From Candidatus Omnitrophota bacterium (GTDB taxonomy: Bacteria > Omnitrophota > Gorgyraeia > B26-G9), in assembly GCA_043826565.1 (NCBI GenBank), contig JBDRPX010000030.1, positions 21,660 to 85,659 of the forward strand: 64,000 nucleotides of DNA. Reading direction: 5' to 3'. Both the position numbers and the translations under genes were made by a program. Below the pieces are notes generated by a model. It searched no databases. It was not told where the DNA came from and saw only the letters and a list, made by a program, of their open reading frames with translations. Positions within the stretch are counted from its first letter, which is position 1; the number at the start of each line of letters is the position of its first letter. This document shows positions 19,334 through 59,706 of this stretch, piece by piece.

Positions 19334-22081
19334 TTAACCTCTACCTGTTTCAGGCACATTGACTGCGGTCACAGCACGCTGTGACCCTACTTTTTGTAAT
19401 AACTGTAAATATTTCAATGCCAATTTTTTTCTATCGTAATTTTTAGCCACAAATGACCTGGCCCTACTTCCCATTGCCTGACACTGCTTGGGATTATTTT
19501 TCAAACCCCGGATACTTTTTATCATTTCCTTGGTGTCTTCCGGAGCAACAATCGAAGCGCCCCCGGATTCCTTAAGAATACCTGCAGATTCACCGCGCAG
19601 ACAAGCAACAATAGGTTTTTCACAAGCCATTATTTCAAAAATCTTAGACGGAATAAATGCACTAAATCCCGGCACATCCTTCAAAGGCACAAGACAAACA
19701 TCAGATAAATTATAAAAATTAATAACCTTTTCTCGGGGCTGGCTAGGAATAAAACTAACATTATTTATATTCCTATCTTTTACTCTTTTTACCAATCTCT
19801 GTTTAACTGCACCTTCTCCGACAAAAAGAAAATGCATATCTTCTTCCTTCTGCAATTCTTCGGCCGCATCAATAACACTGTATAACCCATGAGAAATCCC
19901 ATGCGACCCAATATAGGAAACAATAAATCTATTTTTTGGAATGCCTAGTTCAGAGCGTAAAGACGTCTCCCCATTGCCCGACTTAAACATTTGAAGATCT
20001 ACCCCATTAGTAATTACACACACTTTATTTTCCGGAATTCCTCTTTTTATAATATCCTGGGCAAAGCCATTTGTTACCGGAACAACTGCAGCTGATGCCC
20101 GATACAAAAATAATTCCATGGCTTTCAGCACCCAAATTAAAAACTTATTTTTCAAAACGCCTAATTCAATGAATATTCCCGGCCAAAGATCCCTAACTTC
20201 AAAAACATAAGGAACCCTGCGCAATCGGGAAATTATAAAGGTACTGATAACAGAGAAAAATGCCGGAGAGCTCACCATCAACACATCTGGTTTCTTCCCG
20301 CGAAAAAGACTTAGCACAACAACACTAATCATAAATGAAATATGCAAAAGTGTTCTTTTAAAAAGCCCTCTATTCGGTGTATCAAAAAGCCAGTGCCTCC
20401 ACACCTTAATTCCATCAATCCATTCTTCCATGAATATCTTCCCGCGATATTCTGCAGGAATAACCCCTGTTGGATGATTGGGAAACCCGGTAAGCACGGT
20501 TACTTCATGCCCCTGACTAACCCATTCCTTAGCCATTTCTAAAAGCCTGGCCTGTGGCGCCCCAATCTCCGGATAAAAATATTGGCATATTACATTAATT
20601 TTCAATGACTTACTTTCACTCTCTTTGCTTTTACCCTTAACCGTAAATCTGGCTCTCACCAAGCTGAAAAACATTACTACCCTCTTTATCAGCACCCCAT
20701 CCTTAATCGCCTTAATAACCCATTCCTTAAAAAACATCGGATTAATAAAAAAACATTTTCCAAATCGTGCCTGGAATTTCTTATTTACAAAAAATGAAGA
20801 AAGATAATAGTAAGCATTAAGGATATCCTTCTGCTGCATTTTGTCAGTTATCATAACCGGCTGATAATTATCCATATATGTCGGAGATGTAACATACCGC
20901 GACCAGTCGGTTATCTTTAAATACCCTTTTTCCTTGGCAATCCGGTAAAGCTCAGTCCCGGGAAACGGGCAAGCAATGGAGATCATTACATCCTGCCCAA
21001 TATCTTTTAATAGTTGCGCTGTTTTCTTTACAGAATTTATATCTTCTCCTAAATTCCCCACCATTGTAAATGTCCCGATTTGAATCCCTATTTTTCTTGC
21101 TAATGTATGCACAGCAACTATCTGTTCATCGGTAATTCCTTTTTTAAGCTGCTTGCGCACCTGAGCATCTCCTGACTCCACGCCCACATCAATACGTATG
21201 CATCCGCTTTGTTTCATTACTCGTAGCATTTCTTCATCAATTGTATTTACCCGGGCATTGGCCATCCATTTATACTCTACGTCAGATTCTTTAAGCAAAG
21301 AACATAGTTCCAGAACCCGATCTTTTTTAAGCGTAATCATATCATCTACAAAATCAAACTGGGTCATCCCATAAGTTTTATTTAAAAACTCAATTTCTGA
21401 GAATATATTTTTAGCACTCCGGGCGCGAAAAATCCTCCCAAAGATTGTATGCGAATCGCAAAAAATACATTGGTTAGGACACCCCCGGCTGGAAAGCAAT
21501 GCAAAAGTATGTCCCTGCGCTACAGAAAATACCGAGTATTTATTAACATCTATCAGATCCCATGCGGGAAAGGGAAGTGTGTTAATATCCTCAATCAATG
21601 CGCGCGGCTGAGTAGTAACAAAAACTCCAGCACTATCGGAAAAACAAATCCCCTTTATCTTACTAAAATCATTTTCCCCTTTACTGTAAGCTTTAAGCAG
21701 CTCCAGTAAAGTCAGCTCCCCTTCTCCGATAATCGCACAATCTATATCTGCACATTCCTCTAATGTTTCTTTAGGCAATGCCGAAACATGCGGACCGCCG
21801 ACAAATACAGGAGTCACAAAAGAACACTCTTTTATTAACTCAGCTAAACGTAAACACTCTGTATACTGGTTAGTCATAAATGATATGCCCACAGCCAAAG
21901 GCGTATATTTATCCATAAGCCCACGGATTTCTTCCTCTGTATGCGGGGCAGCATTTAAATCAACAATAACCGGATCAAATCCTTCCTGCCTTATATAAGC
22001 AGCAAGATACGCCAACCCCAGCGGGGGATTCTTCCGCGGATATGTATATTTCGGATAAAAAAGCAATACTGTTTTAGTCAT
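19334..22081 (-). CDS. Fusion protein: B12-binding radical SAM domain (N-terminal) plus GT4 glycosyltransferase (C-terminal)
   Basis: B12-binding region (LGLAYLAAYIRQEGFDPVIVDLN) and radical SAM CxxxCxxC (SRGCPNQCIFCD). After ~residue 490 comes a GT4 domain (INVICQYFYPEIGAPQARLLEMAKEW...HEVTVLTG...). The start is placed at ATG 22079-22081 (AGGA 6 nt upstream) rather than the GTG at 22105 used by the ORF track. Confidence 0.7.
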   Translation of the reverse strand: MTKTVLLFYPKYTYPRKNPPLGLAYLAAYIRQEGFDPVIVDLNAAPHTEEEIRGLMDKYTPLAVGISFMTNQYTECLRLAELIKECSFVTPVFVGGPHVSALPKETLEECADIDCAIIGEGELTLLELLKAYSKGENDFSKIKGICFSDSAGVFVTTQPRALIEDINTLPFPAWDLIDVNKYSVFSVAQGHTFALLSSRGCPNQCIFCDSHTIFGRIFRARSAKNIFSEIEFLNKTYGMTQFDFVDDMITLKKDRVLELCSLLKESDVEYKWMANARVNTIDEEMLRVMKQSGCIRIDVGVESGDAQVRKQLKKGITDEQIVAVHTLARKIGIQIGTFTMVGNLGEDINSVKKTAQLLKDIGQDVMISIACPFPGTELYRIAKEKGYLKITDWSRYVTSPTYMDNYQPVMITDKMQQKDILNAYYYLSSFFVNKKFQARFGKCFFINPMFFKEWVIKAIKDGVLIKRVVMFFSLVRARFTVKGKSKESESKSLKINVICQYFYPEIGAPQARLLEMAKEWVSQGHEVTVLTGFPNHPTGVIPAEYRGKIFMEEWIDGIKVWRHWLFDTPNRGLFKRTLLHISFMISVVVLSLFRGKKPDVLMVSSPAFFSVISTFIISRLRRVPYVFEVRDLWPGIFIELGVLKNKFLIWVLKAMELFLYRASAAVVPVTNGFAQDIIKRGIPENKVCVITNGVDLQMFKSGNGETSLRSELGIPKNRFIVSYIGSHGISHGLYSVIDAAEELQKEEDMHFLFVGEGAVKQRLVKRVKDRNINNVSFIPSQPREKVINFYNLSDVCLVPLKDVPGFSAFIPSKIFEIMACEKPIVACLRGESAGILKESGGASIVAPEDTKEMIKSIRGLKNNPKQCQAMGSRARSFVAKNYDRKKLALKYLQLLQKVGSQRAVTAVNVPETGRG

Positions 22082-29217: not shown

Positions 29218-30348
29218 TCATGCAGTCACAATAATTTGATTATATATTCTTTCCAATTGCCTAGTATTGGTTCTTTCATTAAACAATTTTTCGACTCTTT
29301 CTTTGCCCTTTTGACCGAAAAGCTTTGCCCTTGCAGGATTATTTATCATTTCCGAAATAGCTTTTGCTAACGCTTCAGGATTGCCCGGCGGAACCAATAA
29401 GCCCGTAACACCATCCTCTACAACTTCAGGGGCACCCCCTGAACAAGTGCCAATAACTGGCTTTCCTACAGCCATCGCTTCAATCAAAACACGCCCAAAG
29501 GGTTCCTTTTCAGATGGCAACACCAATATATCCATAGTAGAATATAATTCACGTGTATTATTAATAAATCCAGAAAAAACAATATTCTGTTCTAAATTTA
29601 AAGTCTTACTCAGTTCTTTCAAATAAGAAAAACAATTAGACTCTTTGCTTATCGAAATATCACCTGCGATAAGTAATCTGACCTGAGAATATTGTTTTAC
29701 CAATAAATCCATAGCTTTAATAAGGAAATGTATTCCTTTTGCTTTTTTAATTTGCCCTACGTATCCTATTAAAAAAGCATCCTTTTCAATGCCATATTTT
29801 TCTCTAAAACTACCTGCACTAGCAGTAGAATAACTTTCATCCAAGGAAACAGAATTATAAATTACTATGGATTTCTGCGTGTTTCTCAAATACTTTGAAT
29901 AACTTAGTTCCGTAGCGCTAGAATTAGCAATTAATGTTTTTGTAAGAAATAAAAAATTATTATAGTAACAAGGTTTGGTAATAATGTTTCTGATATGACA
30001 TACTAACGGTACCTTAGTAAATAAGGATGCTATCACTGCATATTGGTTGGATATATACATATTGCAATGAATGAGGCTTATTTTTTCAAGTTTTATTACC
30101 TTAATAAGCCATCGTAAAGTTTTTAAATAAGAAAAAACTGTCCCAAGATTTTTCTTTTTTATATTAGCTAAAGGGTATAAATGAGTTTTTATATTCATTG
30201 ATTTAATCTGCTCTACCAACGGGCCGTTTCCAGTAAGTATAACTATGGGAGTAAATACCTTTTGATCTAAACCCTTTAATAGACAAAGTAAGCTCTTTTC
30301 TGCACCAGCTATTTCCGAAGTATGAGAAATATAAAGTATTTTCTTCAT
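29218..30348 (-). CDS. GT4 glycosyltransferase
   Basis: EPFGRVLIEAMAVGKPVIGTCSGGAPEVVEDGVTGLLVPPGNPEALAKAI. The start is moved to MKKILYISH (30348) to remove the overlap with the upstream gene. Confidence 0.75.
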   Translation of the reverse strand: MKKILYISHTSEIAGAEKSLLCLLKGLDQKVFTPIVILTGNGPLVEQIKSMNIKTHLYPLANIKKKNLGTVFSYLKTLRWLIKVIKLEKISLIHCNMYISNQYAVIASLFTKVPLVCHIRNIITKPCYYNNFLFLTKTLIANSSATELSYSKYLRNTQKSIVIYNSVSLDESYSTASAGSFREKYGIEKDAFLIGYVGQIKKAKGIHFLIKAMDLLVKQYSQVRLLIAGDISISKESNCFSYLKELSKTLNLEQNIVFSGFINNTRELYSTMDILVLPSEKEPFGRVLIEAMAVGKPVIGTCSGGAPEVVEDGVTGLLVPPGNPEALAKAISEMINNPARAKLFGQKGKERVEKLFNERTNTRQLERIYNQIIVTA

Positions 30349-55949: not shown

Positions 55950-58181
55950 TTAATAAAACGTCTGTCCTAGGAACAGATATATTCGGCCGTCCGTACTTCC
56001 CTCGGCCCGGCCATAACCAAAATACAGCGGCCCCAAGAGAGTTTTCATTCCCACAAACACTGTGCCGTTCAAACGCATATCATCCAGATCAATATCACCG
56101 CGCCTGTTCCAGACATCACCGTATTCTACAGCCGCGCCCAGATGAATATTGCTGGCGATCCCGGCATCATCATCACCCAAGGTATAATAATATATCACCC
56201 GGCCCAAGCCGCGGTGCATGCCGCGAAGCTGTTTTTCTCCGTATCCGGAAAGCGATAAAAATCCGCCTAAAGTGAACTGATCATAAAACGGAGTATCTTC
56301 ATCAACACTTGTCCCTGCTTCACCGGCAATTACTAATGTATGCTTGTTAGATAAAGTTCTGGCCCGGGTAAATCCCAATTCCATTTTTTCATAATTAAAA
56401 TCCGCGCCTACTTTTTTATCGGAAACATAAAGCACTGCTTTTGCCTGGGATCCATGTTTAGGAAAAATATGGCTGTCAAACTGGTCATAAAGTATCTGCG
56501 CGGTAAACGCTCCTTCCTGAATACTCTCAAATTCCGGCAAAGCCATACCGCCGACTTCCGGCTCGGCTTCAATACTGCCGCGCTTAACTCCGATTTTAAA
56601 CTGAGTATATGAACAGAAATTCATGCCCAGGTTTATACCCGCGGAATTATGGTCTACGCGATATTCGGCAATGCGGTGGTCCTCCTGATAGATATCATAT
56701 AAATACCTCTGGATAGAAAAATTCGGAGCAATAAAAAACCGGTTGCAGACATCTAAGGGCTGGTGAAATTCCGAATCTATTCCGGTATTCGCGCCAAACC
56801 CAAAAGTATTTCGCCACTCTCCGCCTAAAGAATTAATCTGGGTCATCCGGAAATCCGCAAGTAAGGTATATTCACTATTACCCGTAGAATCGCTATTCAG
56901 ATTAAGGCCAAAACGCAGATAATTAGGTCCCCACTCTTTTTCCTTAGTTTTTACATATAAGCCGCGCTGGCCGTCTTTTTCTATAACATCATAATCAATT
57001 TTTTCAAAATCACCCATGGCGTAAATCCGGTTAAGATCTTTTTCCCATTTTCTCATATCCAGAGAGTCCCCGGGGTGAGTAGCTATCCTGGCCTTGACAG
57101 TTTCCGGGCTTAGTTTTTTGGGTTTAGAAACCTCAACAAATCCCACAATCATCGGATCCGAATCAGCCGGGCGCAGGCGGGAAAGATATTCTTTATACTC
57201 TTTTTCGCTGATACTGTATTTAGCAAAACTATCCGCGATTTTTCGCGCGGCTTGTTCTCCGGCAGTTACTGCTTCCGGGGTCTTATTAAAACTCCCGACG
57301 GCAATACCCCCTACTTGCGGTTTTACAATAATATCATCTTTATCCAGTAAAGCCAATTGGCGCTTGGCATCATCACTTCCCAGAATATCCAGGGCCTGCA
57401 TCATGATCGCCACGGCTGACTGCAGATTTTCCGGTTTATCCAATGCCGGGCCGACATCCACGGCAATAATAATATCCGCGCCCATTTTTTTGGCCACATC
57501 AACCGGAATATTATTTACCACTCCGCCGTCAACCAAGATCTTTCCGTCAACTTCTATTGGAGAAAATGCTCCGGGAATAGACATGCTCGCGCGCATCGCA
57601 TCGGCGATATTGCCGTGATCAAAAATATAAACCTCTCCGCTGCCGATATTCGTAGCTACCGCGCGAAAAGGGATCGGCAAACAATCAAAGTCCTTTATAT
57701 GCGCGGCATCTTTGGTCAGCCGCTTAAGAAAAAATCCCAGTTTTTGCCCGGCAATAAATCCCCGCGGCAGAATGATCTTACCTTTTCGATAACCGGTTTC
57801 AAAATTCATAAGCCGCTGTTCATCATTTTTGCGGCGAAACGGCAAATAATCATCGGTAGGCTTATCACTAAAAAAACCGTTCCAGTCAATTTCATCAAAT
57901 ATCCGGGCCATCTCTTCCGGAGATTTTCCGGAAACATATAATCCGGCCACGATCGCGCCCATGCTTGTACCCACAATATAATCAATGGGCACACGCTGTT
58001 CTTCTAATACTTTAAGCACGCCCACATGCGCGGCGCCGCGCGCTCCGCCCCCGCCTAAAACTAAAGCGATCTTTGGCCGCGTTATCGGATCCTCTGCCCA
58101 CACCAAAGACGAGCACAAGATAATTCGGCAAAATACCATCACTAAAACCAAAACTGTGTTATATCGATATTTTTTTTTCAT
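55950..58181 (-). CDS. Patatin-like phospholipase fused to POTRA + Omp85-type beta-barrel (type Vd autotransporter, PlpD-like)
   Basis: Signal peptide, the patatin motifs GGGGARGAAHVGVLKVLEE and the nucleophile elbow GTSMGAIV, a DGG catalytic Asp region (LVDGGVVNNIPV), then a ~400-aa C-terminal Omp85/surface-antigen-like region. Confidence 0.6.
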   Translation of the reverse strand: MKKKYRYNTVLVLVMVFCRIILCSSLVWAEDPITRPKIALVLGGGGARGAAHVGVLKVLEEQRVPIDYIVGTSMGAIVAGLYVSGKSPEEMARIFDEIDWNGFFSDKPTDDYLPFRRKNDEQRLMNFETGYRKGKIILPRGFIAGQKLGFFLKRLTKDAAHIKDFDCLPIPFRAVATNIGSGEVYIFDHGNIADAMRASMSIPGAFSPIEVDGKILVDGGVVNNIPVDVAKKMGADIIIAVDVGPALDKPENLQSAVAIMMQALDILGSDDAKRQLALLDKDDIIVKPQVGGIAVGSFNKTPEAVTAGEQAARKIADSFAKYSISEKEYKEYLSRLRPADSDPMIVGFVEVSKPKKLSPETVKARIATHPGDSLDMRKWEKDLNRIYAMGDFEKIDYDVIEKDGQRGLYVKTKEKEWGPNYLRFGLNLNSDSTGNSEYTLLADFRMTQINSLGGEWRNTFGFGANTGIDSEFHQPLDVCNRFFIAPNFSIQRYLYDIYQEDHRIAEYRVDHNSAGINLGMNFCSYTQFKIGVKRGSIEAEPEVGGMALPEFESIQEGAFTAQILYDQFDSHIFPKHGSQAKAVLYVSDKKVGADFNYEKMELGFTRARTLSNKHTLVIAGEAGTSVDEDTPFYDQFTLGGFLSLSGYGEKQLRGMHRGLGRVIYYYTLGDDDAGIASNIHLGAAVEYGDVWNRRGDIDLDDMRLNGTVFVGMKTLLGPLYFGYGRAEGSTDGRIYLFLGQTFY

Positions 58182-58752
58182 TAGGGTAACGGACAGGTTG
58201 CAAACCTGTCCCTACATGTATATTTACATTATTTTCGTCTTCTGCCCATGCGGCAGGATTATTAATTATATATTCGCGAATATTGTTCAACGATTTGTCA
58301 TTACGTATGATGTGATCATGAAAAGACCGTTGCCATTTAAATTTATTTCCTGTTTTTATTGTTATATTTATTTGTTTTGATGAAAATGTTTTGAAACCAC
58401 GGATGATTTCCGATAATGAATATGATTTATTATTGTTAACCTGTAGGGGAGGGTTTGTAACCCTCCCTCTAGGATTAACCCTTTTATTGAAATTATCAAT
58501 AATCAAAATCCCATGAATATGGTTGGGCATAAGAATAAATGTATCGATACTTAGATTATTATAGTGTGTTGGTAAATCTAGCCAAGTTTGCTGGCAAATT
58601 CTACCATACAAGTTTATTTGTATCTGATCATTTATAACATTTCCCAGCCATTCTTTGCGACCATCGGTGCAAATAGTTACATAATAATAACCATTAAGCG
58701 TATAATCGCAGTGTTTCAATCGATTATTTTTACGTGTATAAAATTTTACCAT
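58159..58752 (-). CDS. IS200/IS605-family Y1 (HUH) transposase of the REP-associated (RAYT) type, carrying an in-frame 39-bp REP-like insertion
   Basis: HuH motif MPNHIHGILI, the Tyr region SYSLSEIIRGFKTFSSKQIN, and the RAYT-typical WQRSFHDHIIRND...YIINNPAAW. Confidence 0.65.
   Translation of the reverse strand: MVKFYTRKNNRLKHCDYTLNGYYYVTICTDGRKEWLGNVINDQIQINLYGRICQQTWLDLPTHYNNLSIDTFILMPNHIHGILIIDNFNKRVNPRGRVTNPPLQVNNNKSYSLSEIIRGFKTFSSKQINITIKTGNKFKWQRSFHDHIIRNDKSLNNIREYIINNPAAWAEDENNVNIHVGTGLQPVRYPNEKKISI
58191..58211. repeat. REP-like palindrome GGACAGGTT-gca-AACCTGTCC inside the 3' end of the RAYT ORF, 10 nt upstream of the patatin gene ATG
   Basis: Perfect 9-bp stem read from the sequence. 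It is homologous in form (GGTT/AACC core with compensatory arm changes) to the palindrome at 58447-58467. Confidence 0.5.
58442..58480. repeat. 39-bp REP-like insertion in the RAYT gene: palindrome GGGAGGGTT-tgt-AACCCTCCC plus a 6-bp direct repeat TTAACC (58436-58441 and 58475-58480)
   Basis: Read from the sequence. The insert plus one direct repeat is 39 bp (13 codons) and encodes the extra loop PRGRVTNPPLQVN between the HuH and Tyr motifs. Confidence 0.5.
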
Positions 58753-58810
58753 AACAATATGCCAACATCCTAATTATTTACCAATAAATGCAGCCCCAGA
58801 TTGTTTTAAT

Positions 58811-59542
58811 TTAGTTACTCTTATTTTTCCGCCGTTCTTTCAAAGACATTCCCGGCACCCCGCAATATACTGTACGCGGTTCAATAATTGTATTTTTGCC
58901 CAGCACCGTACCCGCGGCCAGCATCGCCTGATCACCGATCTGGCATCCGGGCAAAACCACAGAATTCAAACCGATCACCGCGCGATTGCCGATCTTAACT
59001 TTTTTTAAAACCAATCTTCCCCGCTCAAAAGAATGTCCGATCACCGTAGCATGGCCGCCGATAACCGCGCTATCGCCGATCTCCAAAAGAGACAGATCAG
59101 CGCAAAACTTGGAATTTATCTGTACATTCTTACCCAGCTTCGCGCCCATTAAACGGTAAAAAAGATTAATAAAAGGAGTAATTAAAATAAAATCCATAAA
59201 TGTATTAGCGACTACCAGGACCAGGGAATTGACCAAAGCCCATTTCAAAGCCCCCGGAGAAGCCATGGGATATTCCCCTTCTTTTAAAGTTAGTCCGAAT
59301 AAAATCCGGACTATTCCGACAATAAAAATCAAACATAATCCATAAATAAAATAAGCCGCCGCGATCCCTAAGGAAAACGCCAGTATCTGCCAAACCAAAG
59401 AATATTCCGCCGCCAGATTAACAAACTTAACACACAATAACAGTCCGGGAAAAATCGCCAAGCCGATAACAAATATCCCCACCACATACATGAATAATGT
59501 AAACAACAACTGCACAATCGTCGTAATCAACCATTTCATAGC
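58811..59542 (-). CDS. Membrane-anchored hexapeptide-repeat (LbH) acyltransferase
   Basis: Start moved to MKWLITTIV (ATG 59540-59542, GGAGG RBS); the longer ORF-track start would run into the repeat element. Three or four N-terminal TM helices, then LbH repeats (IGDSAVIGGHATVIGHSFERGRLVLKKVKIGNRAVIGLNSVVLPGCQIGDQAMLAAGTVLG). Confidence 0.55.
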   Translation of the reverse strand, partial: AMKWLITTIVQLLFTLFMYVVGIFVIGLAIFPGLLLCVKFVNLAAEYSLVWQILAFSLGIAAAYFIYGLCLIFIVGIVRILFGLTLKEGEYPMASPGALKWALVNSLVLVVANTFMDFILITPFINLFYRLMGAKLGKNVQINSKFCADLSLLEIGDSAVIGGHATVIGHSFERGRLVLKKVKIGNRAVIGLNSVVLPGCQIGDQAMLAAGTVLGKNTIIEPRTVYCGVPGMSLKERRKNKSN

Positions 59543-59584
59543 AACCCTCCGATTTAAAGTATTACGTCCCATAAGTACAGATAA

Positions 59585-59706
59585 CGCAAAAATTATCTTT
59601 GAACGGCGCTTTGAATCGTCATTTTTGCACGAGGCAAAAATAGATTCAACGCGCGGCCGCAAGGCATGGATGCCGCTGCGGGCTTAGTGAAAAGATGTGT
59701 TTTGCG
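59585..59706. repeat. Copy 3 of the conserved structured intergenic element, ~45 nt upstream of the LbH acyltransferase gene
   Basis: CGCAAAAATtatctttgaacGGCGCTTTGAATCG-[hairpin ATTTTTGCACGAGGCAAAAAT]-AGATTCAACGCGCGGCCGC-[hairpin GGCATGGATGCC]-GCTGCGGGCTTAG...GTGTTTTGCG. The terminal inverted repeat is CGCAAAA/TTTTGCG, a compensatory change relative to GGCAAAAA/TTTTTGCC in copies 1 and 2. Confidence 0.5.

Follow-up and report, generated by a model that had tools for sequence, protein, structure and literature searches.

A REP-type hairpin resident at a conserved site inside a RAYT-like transposase gene, lengthened in a Candidatus Omnitrophota genome

The stretch of DNA analyzed here (the window) comprises 64,000 nucleotides (nt) of contig JBDRPX010000030.1 from a Candidatus Omnitrophota bacterium. 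It carries an intact gene for a Y1 (HUH) transposase resembling the REP-associated tyrosine transposases (RAYTs), REP standing for repetitive extragenic palindromic element, and two GC-rich palindromes lie within this open reading frame (ORF), one in its interior and one near its 3′ end. The original prediction, made from the sequence of the window, described the inner palindrome as a REP-like element that had landed inside its own putative mobilizer. We confirmed both palindromes and arrived at a different history for the inner one: its core is resident at a conserved site, and in the window's gene the hairpin has been lengthened symmetrically. Our preferred reading, to which we assign a probability of roughly 0.55, is that the RAYT-like gene harbors, in the form of this palindrome, a resident REP hairpin of the GTAG type that is cognate to the encoded enzyme.

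The encoded protein was assigned to Pfam Y1_Tnp (E value, 6e-6). By far its best-scoring family was REP_Tyr_transpos (NCBIfam NF047646/COG1943), with 57.8 bits against a curated cut-off of 80, compared with 17 bits on the IS200 model NF033573, whose cut-off of 55 excludes it from the IS200-type TnpA proteins. Three homologues likewise scored below the RAYT cut-off (64 to 75 bits), and we refer to the clade as RAYT-like, outside the curated equivalog. An AlphaFold (AF2) model, for which 32 sequences were used, is confident in its core, and this core matches IS200/IS605 TnpA and the Escherichia coli RAYT structure 4er8_A (E value, 1e-5). When the protein was aligned with 4ER8, H78-I-H80 and Y161 corresponded to HMH and Y115 of that enzyme, such that the HUH motif, the Y(I/V)xxNP tyrosine, and the Y1 fold of RAYTs are all present. 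Between the HuH motif and the tyrosine, KWQRSFHDHIIRN aligns with IWQPRFWEHAIRN of 4ER8 and conforms to the RAYT motif WQxxF(W/Y/H)(D/E)H.IR. All residues invariant in a homologue alignment (A1), including W140, Q141, F144, and R150, are found in the protein, and so is the nearly invariant Y161, which, from the 4ER8 literature, we take to be the catalytic tyrosine. The palindrome had been placed between the HuH motif and the catalytic tyrosine region; it does lie between that motif and the next helix, but the SYSLSE segment taken for the tyrosine region is not the one that contains Y161. The linker in question (approximately residues 88 to 112) was modeled at a predicted local distance difference test score (pLDDT) of about 50 or lower, as was the C-terminal tail encoded by the 3′ hairpin, and by this model the hairpin-encoded segment is probably a disordered linker. 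The protein is identical to an NCBI protein of a Candidatus Omnitrophota metagenome-assembled genome (MAG), and an independent Logan assembly of run SRR26275510 reproduced the gene base for base, which indicated that the palindrome is no assembly artifact.

REPs of the GTAG class are defined by a GT(A/G)G head joined directly to a perfect, GC-rich palindrome with 2 to 4 interrupting bases (PMC2817692), and both hairpins of the gene have this structure; the original prediction had already called the internal one REP-like. The internal palindrome forms a perfect 9+3+9 arrangement at 58447-58467; on the coding strand its 25-nt core reads GGGAGGGTT-ACA-AACCCTCCC-CTAC and encodes GRVTNPPL. The second, related palindrome, GGACAGGTT-GCA-AACCTGTCC, was likewise found where it had been reported (58191-58211) and is oriented oppositely to the first. 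A degenerate family pattern matched exactly these two sites in the 64 kb, where shuffled sequences gave an expectation of 0.01. REPs are also extragenic and present in high copy number, which does not apply here: the internal copy is translated, and both copies of the window are located within the RAYT ORF. These data indicated that the internal hairpin has REP structure, its membership in a repeated family of this genome being putative. Neither palindrome is followed by a terminator-like tail or has a match in Rfam.

Table 1. Positions of the RAYT-like gene, its motifs, and its hairpins in the window
Feature	Position	Strand	Basis
RAYT-like Y1 (HUH) transposase gene, 197 amino acids, intact	58159..58752	-	ORF and Pfam Y1_Tnp
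HuH motif H78-I-H80	58513..58521	-	Alignment with homologues and 4ER8
Putative catalytic Tyr codon, Y161 in REYIINNP	58270..58272	-	Aligns with Y115 of 4ER8
Internal REP core: GTAG head (58443-58446) and 9-bp stem with 3-nt loop, GGGAGGGTT-TGT-AACCCTCCC	58443..58467	+	
3′ REP, second related type: GTAG head (58212-58215) and GGACAGGTT-TGC-AACCTGTCC	58191..58215	-	
Longer, imperfect palindrome found in this form in the window's gene only (approximately 19 pairs, bulged)	58435..58479	.	DNA folding
Left outer arm, 14 nt, GGGTTAATCCTAGA, with one TTAACC/GGTTAA copy	58468..58481	-	Absent from short-form orthologues
Right outer arm, 10 nt, GGTTAACAAT, with the other TTAACC/GGTTAA copy	58432..58441	-	Absent from short-form orthologues

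The case for a recent landing had rested on two copies of TTAACC around the internal palindrome. They are present at 58436-58441 and 58475-58480, with a 39-nt period that keeps the reading frame and encodes the peptide KRVNPRGRVTNPPLQVNNNK, yet they do not represent a target-site duplication. TTAA is self-complementary, so this direct repeat is an inverted repeat as well. Because GTTAA (58475-58479) pairs with TTAAC (58435-58439), the two copies are the outer arms of a 45-nt imperfect palindrome, in which CCTAG also pairs with CTA..GG. When folded as single-stranded DNA, the two strands of 58435-58479 gave -13.2 and -13.0 kcal/mol (z = -3.9 and -4.2). Of 331 GC-rich hairpins, 6.6% had direct repeats of 6 nt or more in their flanks, versus 3.5% with shuffled flanks, and none of these repeats was TTAACC; nor was any other copy of the hairpin flanked by that sequence. 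A flanking repeat of this length is, on its own, weak evidence for duplication. Insertion with target duplication was rejected on the grounds that the orthologues are filled at the site with other flanks and that the repeat pairs within the stem.

DNA alignment with four short-form orthologous loci (L001, L003, L205, and L207) showed what is particular to the window: 14+10 extra nt, amounting to 8 additional residues and a shifted reading frame of the core. Conceptual excision of 39 bp had been thought to restore a canonical loop, but the orthologous state itself contains the palindrome. A short segment is present at the same loop position in all of the 31 homologues aligned. Judging from the sequence, a perfect left arm (GTTAACCTGTAG) would put a TAG stop in frame, which the observed GTTAATCCTAGA would avoid. 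The 24 extra nt may have come from template switching, from duplication of a part, or from a longer copy taking the place of the short one, and these origins were indistinguishable.

The close orthologues are 56 to 74% identical to the window's protein, and the palindrome occupies the identical site in L001, L207, L003, and L205. L001 and L207 carry an intact REP stem with the CTAC tail, L207 having the loop ATA instead of ACA, and the internal copies of L003 and L205 each contain one mismatch. L001 and L204 contain a 25-nt core identical to that of the window, each reading it in one of the two remaining frames. The core is thus translated in all three frames, giving GRVTNPPL in the window, R-EGYKPSP-T in the group of L001, L003, L205, and L207, and GGLQTLPY in L204. 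In L210 and L211, which carry GGGAGGGTC-GCA-GACCCTCCC, a compensatory change from T:A to C:G turned EGYKPSP into EGRRPSP. Because the core is read in whichever frame it happens to lie, these results indicated that a nucleic acid structure is maintained here, and not a peptide.

The flanks of these genes were also compared. L003 and L205 possess both 5′ and 3′ REP copies, and the window has the 3′ REP and none upstream. An intact copy of the internal hairpin was found just upstream of the gene at L003:3302-3322 and L205:5284-5304, the same two loci whose internal hairpin is mismatched, a coincidence hinting that one intact copy may suffice; across 61 loci with full flanks, a trade-off between internal and upstream hairpins was not significant (odds ratio, 0.43; P = 0.31). 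The 3′ REP is conserved at the 3′ end of the gene in L001, L003, L205, and L210, in which the stop codon TAA is located in the hairpin loop. There, the loop is TGT on the coding strand, giving TTG-TAA, and in the window it is TGC. This T-to-C change removes the stop, and the ORF is therefore 14 codons longer (ending in QPVRYPNEKKISI; window 58159-58203), the extension overlapping the ATG at 58181 of a downstream patatin/Omp85 gene. The orthologous genes reside in unrelated neighborhoods (L001:8678-10848; L003, L205, and L207; window 55950-59662), and in L001, for example, the gene is located between xseA and xseB, two genes ordinarily found side by side. These contexts suggested that gene and hairpins have moved as a unit, or have been gained and lost.

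To see how widely the layout is shared, we assembled 80 metagenome loci whose homologues have 33 to 49% identity, together with the window, L001, and L003, and recognized the HuH motif in 81 of them. A perfect stem of at least 7 bp occurred within 170 nt after the motif in 67 of the 81 loci, versus 89 of 778 background segments (11%) taken at random from the same loci; with stems of at least 9 bp, the counts were 47 of 81 and 26 of 778. Three places only showed a peak of GC-rich hairpins: the 3′ end, the stretch immediately upstream of the start codon, and, with the strongest peak of the three, the interior of the gene directly behind the HuH motif. Among the 61 loci with full flanks, the internal hairpin was present in 48, an upstream one in 19, and a 3′ one in 22, and in 23 loci the internal hairpin was the sole one. 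Most internal hairpins are tagged with GTAG, CTAC, or both. Their stems vary widely between lineages (e.g., GGGAACGGTT, GGGACAGGTT, GGGGCGAGGCATGCCTCGCCCC, and GGGAACGGTCGCGACCGTTCCC) and are almost always perfect. The sample as a whole contained just 6 mismatches, a number that did not suffice for telling an RNA-level from a DNA-level structure by G-T versus A-C mismatches. The genes remain intact: by strict patterns, HuH, WQ..F..H, and Y..NP fall within one open frame in 68 of 75 genes (about 91%), and several of the remainder are pattern misses. Likewise, wherever the loop could be delimited among the 120 best protein homologues, it nearly always showed a palindrome-type peptide, P0114 being one clear exception; its locus, L212, is flanked by hairpins on either side but contains no internal one, and the gene looks fully intact. 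Thus, in a large clade found in several phyla, an internal hairpin is the usual layout, seen in about 80% of the 81 loci sampled. The palindrome may still be called an insertion relative to members without an internal REP, such as P0114/L212 (loop IIEKLQDKKNYSLSE) and E. coli rayT, but as a landing it is neither recent nor unique, given that the close orthologues have the core in that very position and that about 80% of the distant homologues have a version of their own.

Tandem duplications of half an arm were noticed beside internal or flanking hairpins in L142, L149, L154/L164, L181, and L182, in proteins P0053 and P0071, and at L212:9865-9990. In P0071, the loop has expanded to 105 residues and contains VETGFNIEKVKTDLN four times, and in L212 three additional right-arm repeats come after the upstream hairpin. 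Such duplications look like products of slippage or of cut-and-rejoin events at the hairpin.

Covariation was then assessed on the loop DNA of 27 sequences that had been chosen by protein motifs only. RNAalifold returned a hairpin of 8 pairs, 5 of them with double changes. For a 14-pair structure, we counted 34 double-change cells, compared with 10.3 in shuffles (0 of 500 reached 34), and the covariation score was 0.273, versus 0.130 for shuffles and 0.05 to 0.12 for slid partners. Furthermore, the inner 8 nt of the internal arm were identical to those of a flanking hairpin at the same locus in 24 of 49 comparisons, versus 2% between loci, and arm distance tracked N-terminal protein identity (Spearman, -0.21; reached by 0 of 500 permutations). 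These data indicated that the internal hairpin belongs to the same sequence class as the flanking hairpins and diverges along with the protein, its stem being kept by compensatory changes.

We also searched for copies away from the gene. No sequence resembling either REP of the window (at most 3 mismatches) was found anywhere but in or beside the RAYT gene in 115.8 kb, made up of the 64-kb window and 51.8 kb from five orthologous loci, and a further 4.8 kb of the same contig yielded no exact match to the family pattern. The active REP/RAYT population that had been proposed for this genome therefore has no support in the 68.8 kb of it that were searched. In 337 kb of flanks across 65 homologous loci, only 3 extra copies of a locus's own hairpin were detected.

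A related hairpin, GTAG-GGGCGGGTT-N3-AACCCGCCC(-CTAC), was found in more than 120 stretches among the matches listed, in many phyla and mostly far from any RAYT gene. Matches from MAGs of Chloroflexota, Thermodesulfobacteriota, Nitrospirota, Patescibacteria, Omnitrophota, and other groups are nearly identical to one another, a cross-phylum identity that is unusual for REPs; Dehalococcoidia chromosomes were also among the matches listed. One locus of Candidatus Omnitrophota (L074; JAUYEC010000001.1, 875-5169) has eight GTAG-tagged matches, in which both strands of double-tagged copies are counted, at five hairpin sites within 7.5 kb. One type in this cluster is GGACAGGTT, to which the 3′ hairpin of the window's gene belongs, and that type thus forms dispersed clusters in another Omnitrophota genome.

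Elsewhere in the window, two further GC-rich perfect hairpins, GGTCACAGCACGCTGTGACC (19367-19386) and TTCAGGGGCACCCCCTGAA (29425-29443), are unrelated in sequence to those associated with the RAYT-like gene. Nearly all long ORFs of the window (1-64000) are on the minus strand, and the plus strand has a strongly negative GC skew over its entire length (-0.17 to -0.24), from which the minus strand is probably the leading one throughout.

The closest known counterpart of this arrangement is the REPtron of E. coli (rayT/yafM, encoding TnpA-REP), which likewise combines a Y1 HUH enzyme having HuH, WQxxF.(D/E)H, and the Y(I/V)xxNP tyrosine with GTAG-headed GC-rich hairpins of one class associated with the gene. 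It differs in that the window's hairpin is located inside the ORF and is translated, that no dispersed family is visible near the window's gene, and that the window's protein falls under the curated RAYT cut-off. In E. coli K-12, perfect hairpins with stems of 6 bp or more are absent from rayT and its immediate surroundings, and GTAG/CTAC-tagged REPs were seen by eye in its downstream flank. IS200/IS605 elements share with the window's clade the Y1 fold, hairpins near the gene ends, the absence of target duplication, and the occurrence of the unit at unrelated sites in related genomes. However, the window's protein is far nearer the RAYT model, the hairpins of the clade are GTAG-tagged and often inverted, and an internal hairpin is outside the IS200/IS605 plan. 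Palindromes of the GTAG type are tolerated in frame within coding regions of host genes (Di Nocera et al. 2013, PMC3733652). In those cases, the host genes and the sites differ, whereas here the host gene encodes the presumed REP-processing enzyme, and the site is conserved across several phyla with a hairpin that diverges along with the protein.

HUH-type nucleases with their recognition and nick site in their own coding sequence are exemplified by rolling-circle initiators whose genes contain their own origin, namely gene A of phiX174 and repC of pT181. As in the window's clade, a site within the gene ties the enzyme to the site; the analogy concerns layout only, for those sites are replication origins of small replicons, and the gene studied here is chromosomal and single-copy. 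We found no mention of a REP inside a RAYT ORF in the RAYT/REP literature consulted (Nunvar 2010, Ton-Hoang 2012, Di Nocera 2013, Bertels 2017, Quentin 2018, Corneloup 2021, and Bertels & Rainey), a coverage that is incomplete and no proof of novelty. With REPtrons bearing flanking REPs and in-frame REPs in host genes already known, a conserved hairpin inside the RAYT ORF would appear, from sequence comparison, to be a variant that we did not find described.

What keeps a palindrome in this gene could be explained in other ways. The main rival, which we hold to be a serious contender but on balance doubtful, is that the hairpin has no function for either enzyme or host: REPs made or moved nearby would land repeatedly in the only tolerant part of the protein, where template-switch or hairpin-directed correction would keep them perfect or let them grow. 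A linker predicted to be disordered would accommodate such passengers, and the variation in hairpin position, frame, and flanks even among close relatives, the half-arm tandem duplications that are common beside hairpins, the clade members lacking an internal hairpin, and the one-mismatch copies of L003 and L205 are all consistent with them. On the other hand, this history does not readily explain why the internal site is filled far more often than either flank and is frequently the sole hairpin, why donor copies of the cognate sequence are nearly absent nearby, why the stems are almost always perfect, or why a 25-nt core is identical between genes that have diverged so far as proteins. Alternatively, the stem-loop could act in the transcript, slowing translation or serving as a nuclease or processing site and so keeping RAYT levels low, as for IS200 tnpA. 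The stem is stable and is located within the transcript, and down-regulation of RAYT/IS200 genes by REP hairpins has been discussed (PMC3733652). Yet an RNA stem would have no use for the conserved GTAG/CTAC tags, by which single-stranded DNA is recognized, and the mismatches of L003 and L205 are A-C on the coding strand, breaking the pair in mRNA, but G-T on the GTAG-bearing DNA strand. For these two reasons, we consider an mRNA role improbable, and the lack of a terminator-like tail and of an Rfam family points the same way.

Recent transposition of a REP into the gene, with duplication of a 6-bp TTAACC target by an active REP/RAYT system, would account for the repeat on both sides, its in-frame 39-nt spacing, and the members without an internal REP, whose loop lengths are near that of the conceptually excised one. 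We nevertheless regard it as very improbable: an identical core is already at the site in orthologues, the repeat consists of paired outer arms that other copies do not have, no other copies were seen in the sequence searched from this genome, and Y1 enzymes of the IS200/IS605 type generate no target duplications (PMC3333891). Even less credit is due to the view that selection acts on a peptide (e.g., a DNA-binding hairpin) and that the nucleotide symmetry is its by-product. Peptides such as VGNGLKPFPT and VGTGLKPVPT do recur in many homologues, but the same nucleotides are translated in three frames into unrelated peptides, and lineages differ in both stem and peptide with a palindrome always there; the low model confidence in the segment also fits this view poorly. 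Conservation at the peptide level was rejected because the reading frame changes.

The reading of the palindrome as the enzyme's own cognate REP hairpin has difficulties too. The protein scores lower than the curated RAYT threshold. An internal hairpin is lacking in about 20% of clade members, of which L212 looks intact, so the hairpin is not essential. The GTAG head shows no clear strand preference, being on both sides in 34 hairpins, on one side only in 23, and on the other only in 15. Dispersed copies near these genes numbered 3 across 337 kb of flanks and zero across the 115.8 kb of the Omnitrophota group, and a role as seed is therefore not visibly exercised here. Finally, perfect stems with double changes could be kept without function by template-switch correction of quasi-palindromes.

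If the cognate-hairpin reading holds, the sequence of events could be as follows. When the stretch becomes single stranded or is extruded as a cruciform, the GTAG-headed hairpin would form and be bound, and possibly nicked, by the gene's own protein. We infer that the enzyme recognizes the internal hairpin by analogy with E. coli TnpA-REP, for which the GTAG head and the hairpin are the recognition features (PMC3733652). A recognition site inside the ORF would tie the enzyme to its site, for neither deletion of a flank nor transfer could drop the site without the gene, and from inside the ORF the site could act as a seed (master) copy or regulate the gene in a self-limiting way. In the window, the hairpin would most likely have been lengthened symmetrically via template switching at the palindrome or through replacement by a longer, double-tagged copy, with bulges being kept wherever a perfect GTAG would bring a stop into frame. 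As a broader proposal, which we put forward tentatively and hold to be less probable than its basis, a RAYT-like clade spread over several phyla may keep its own recognition hairpin in the coding sequence, as a self-contained module of enzyme plus site, similar to the rolling-circle initiators mentioned above, in which the hairpin acts as a seed, a nick site, and/or a brake on expression.

RAYTs and REPs are a textbook case of a domesticated transposase with dependent repeats, and the layout bears on the questions of how enzyme and repeat stay matched and how REPs arise in vivo. The layout described here offers a natural test system of one gene and one site for binding, cleavage, and self-regulation, and it allows persistence of a palindrome by selection to be tested against persistence by self-correcting mutation. 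For annotation, it explains the odd Gly/Pro/Arg-rich, frame-variable segment present in very many metagenome "transposase" calls. If the module proposal is true, it would explain the near-identical GTAG hairpins of distant phyla, and the internal copy would be an inseparable seed from which a REP population could be founded after transfer.

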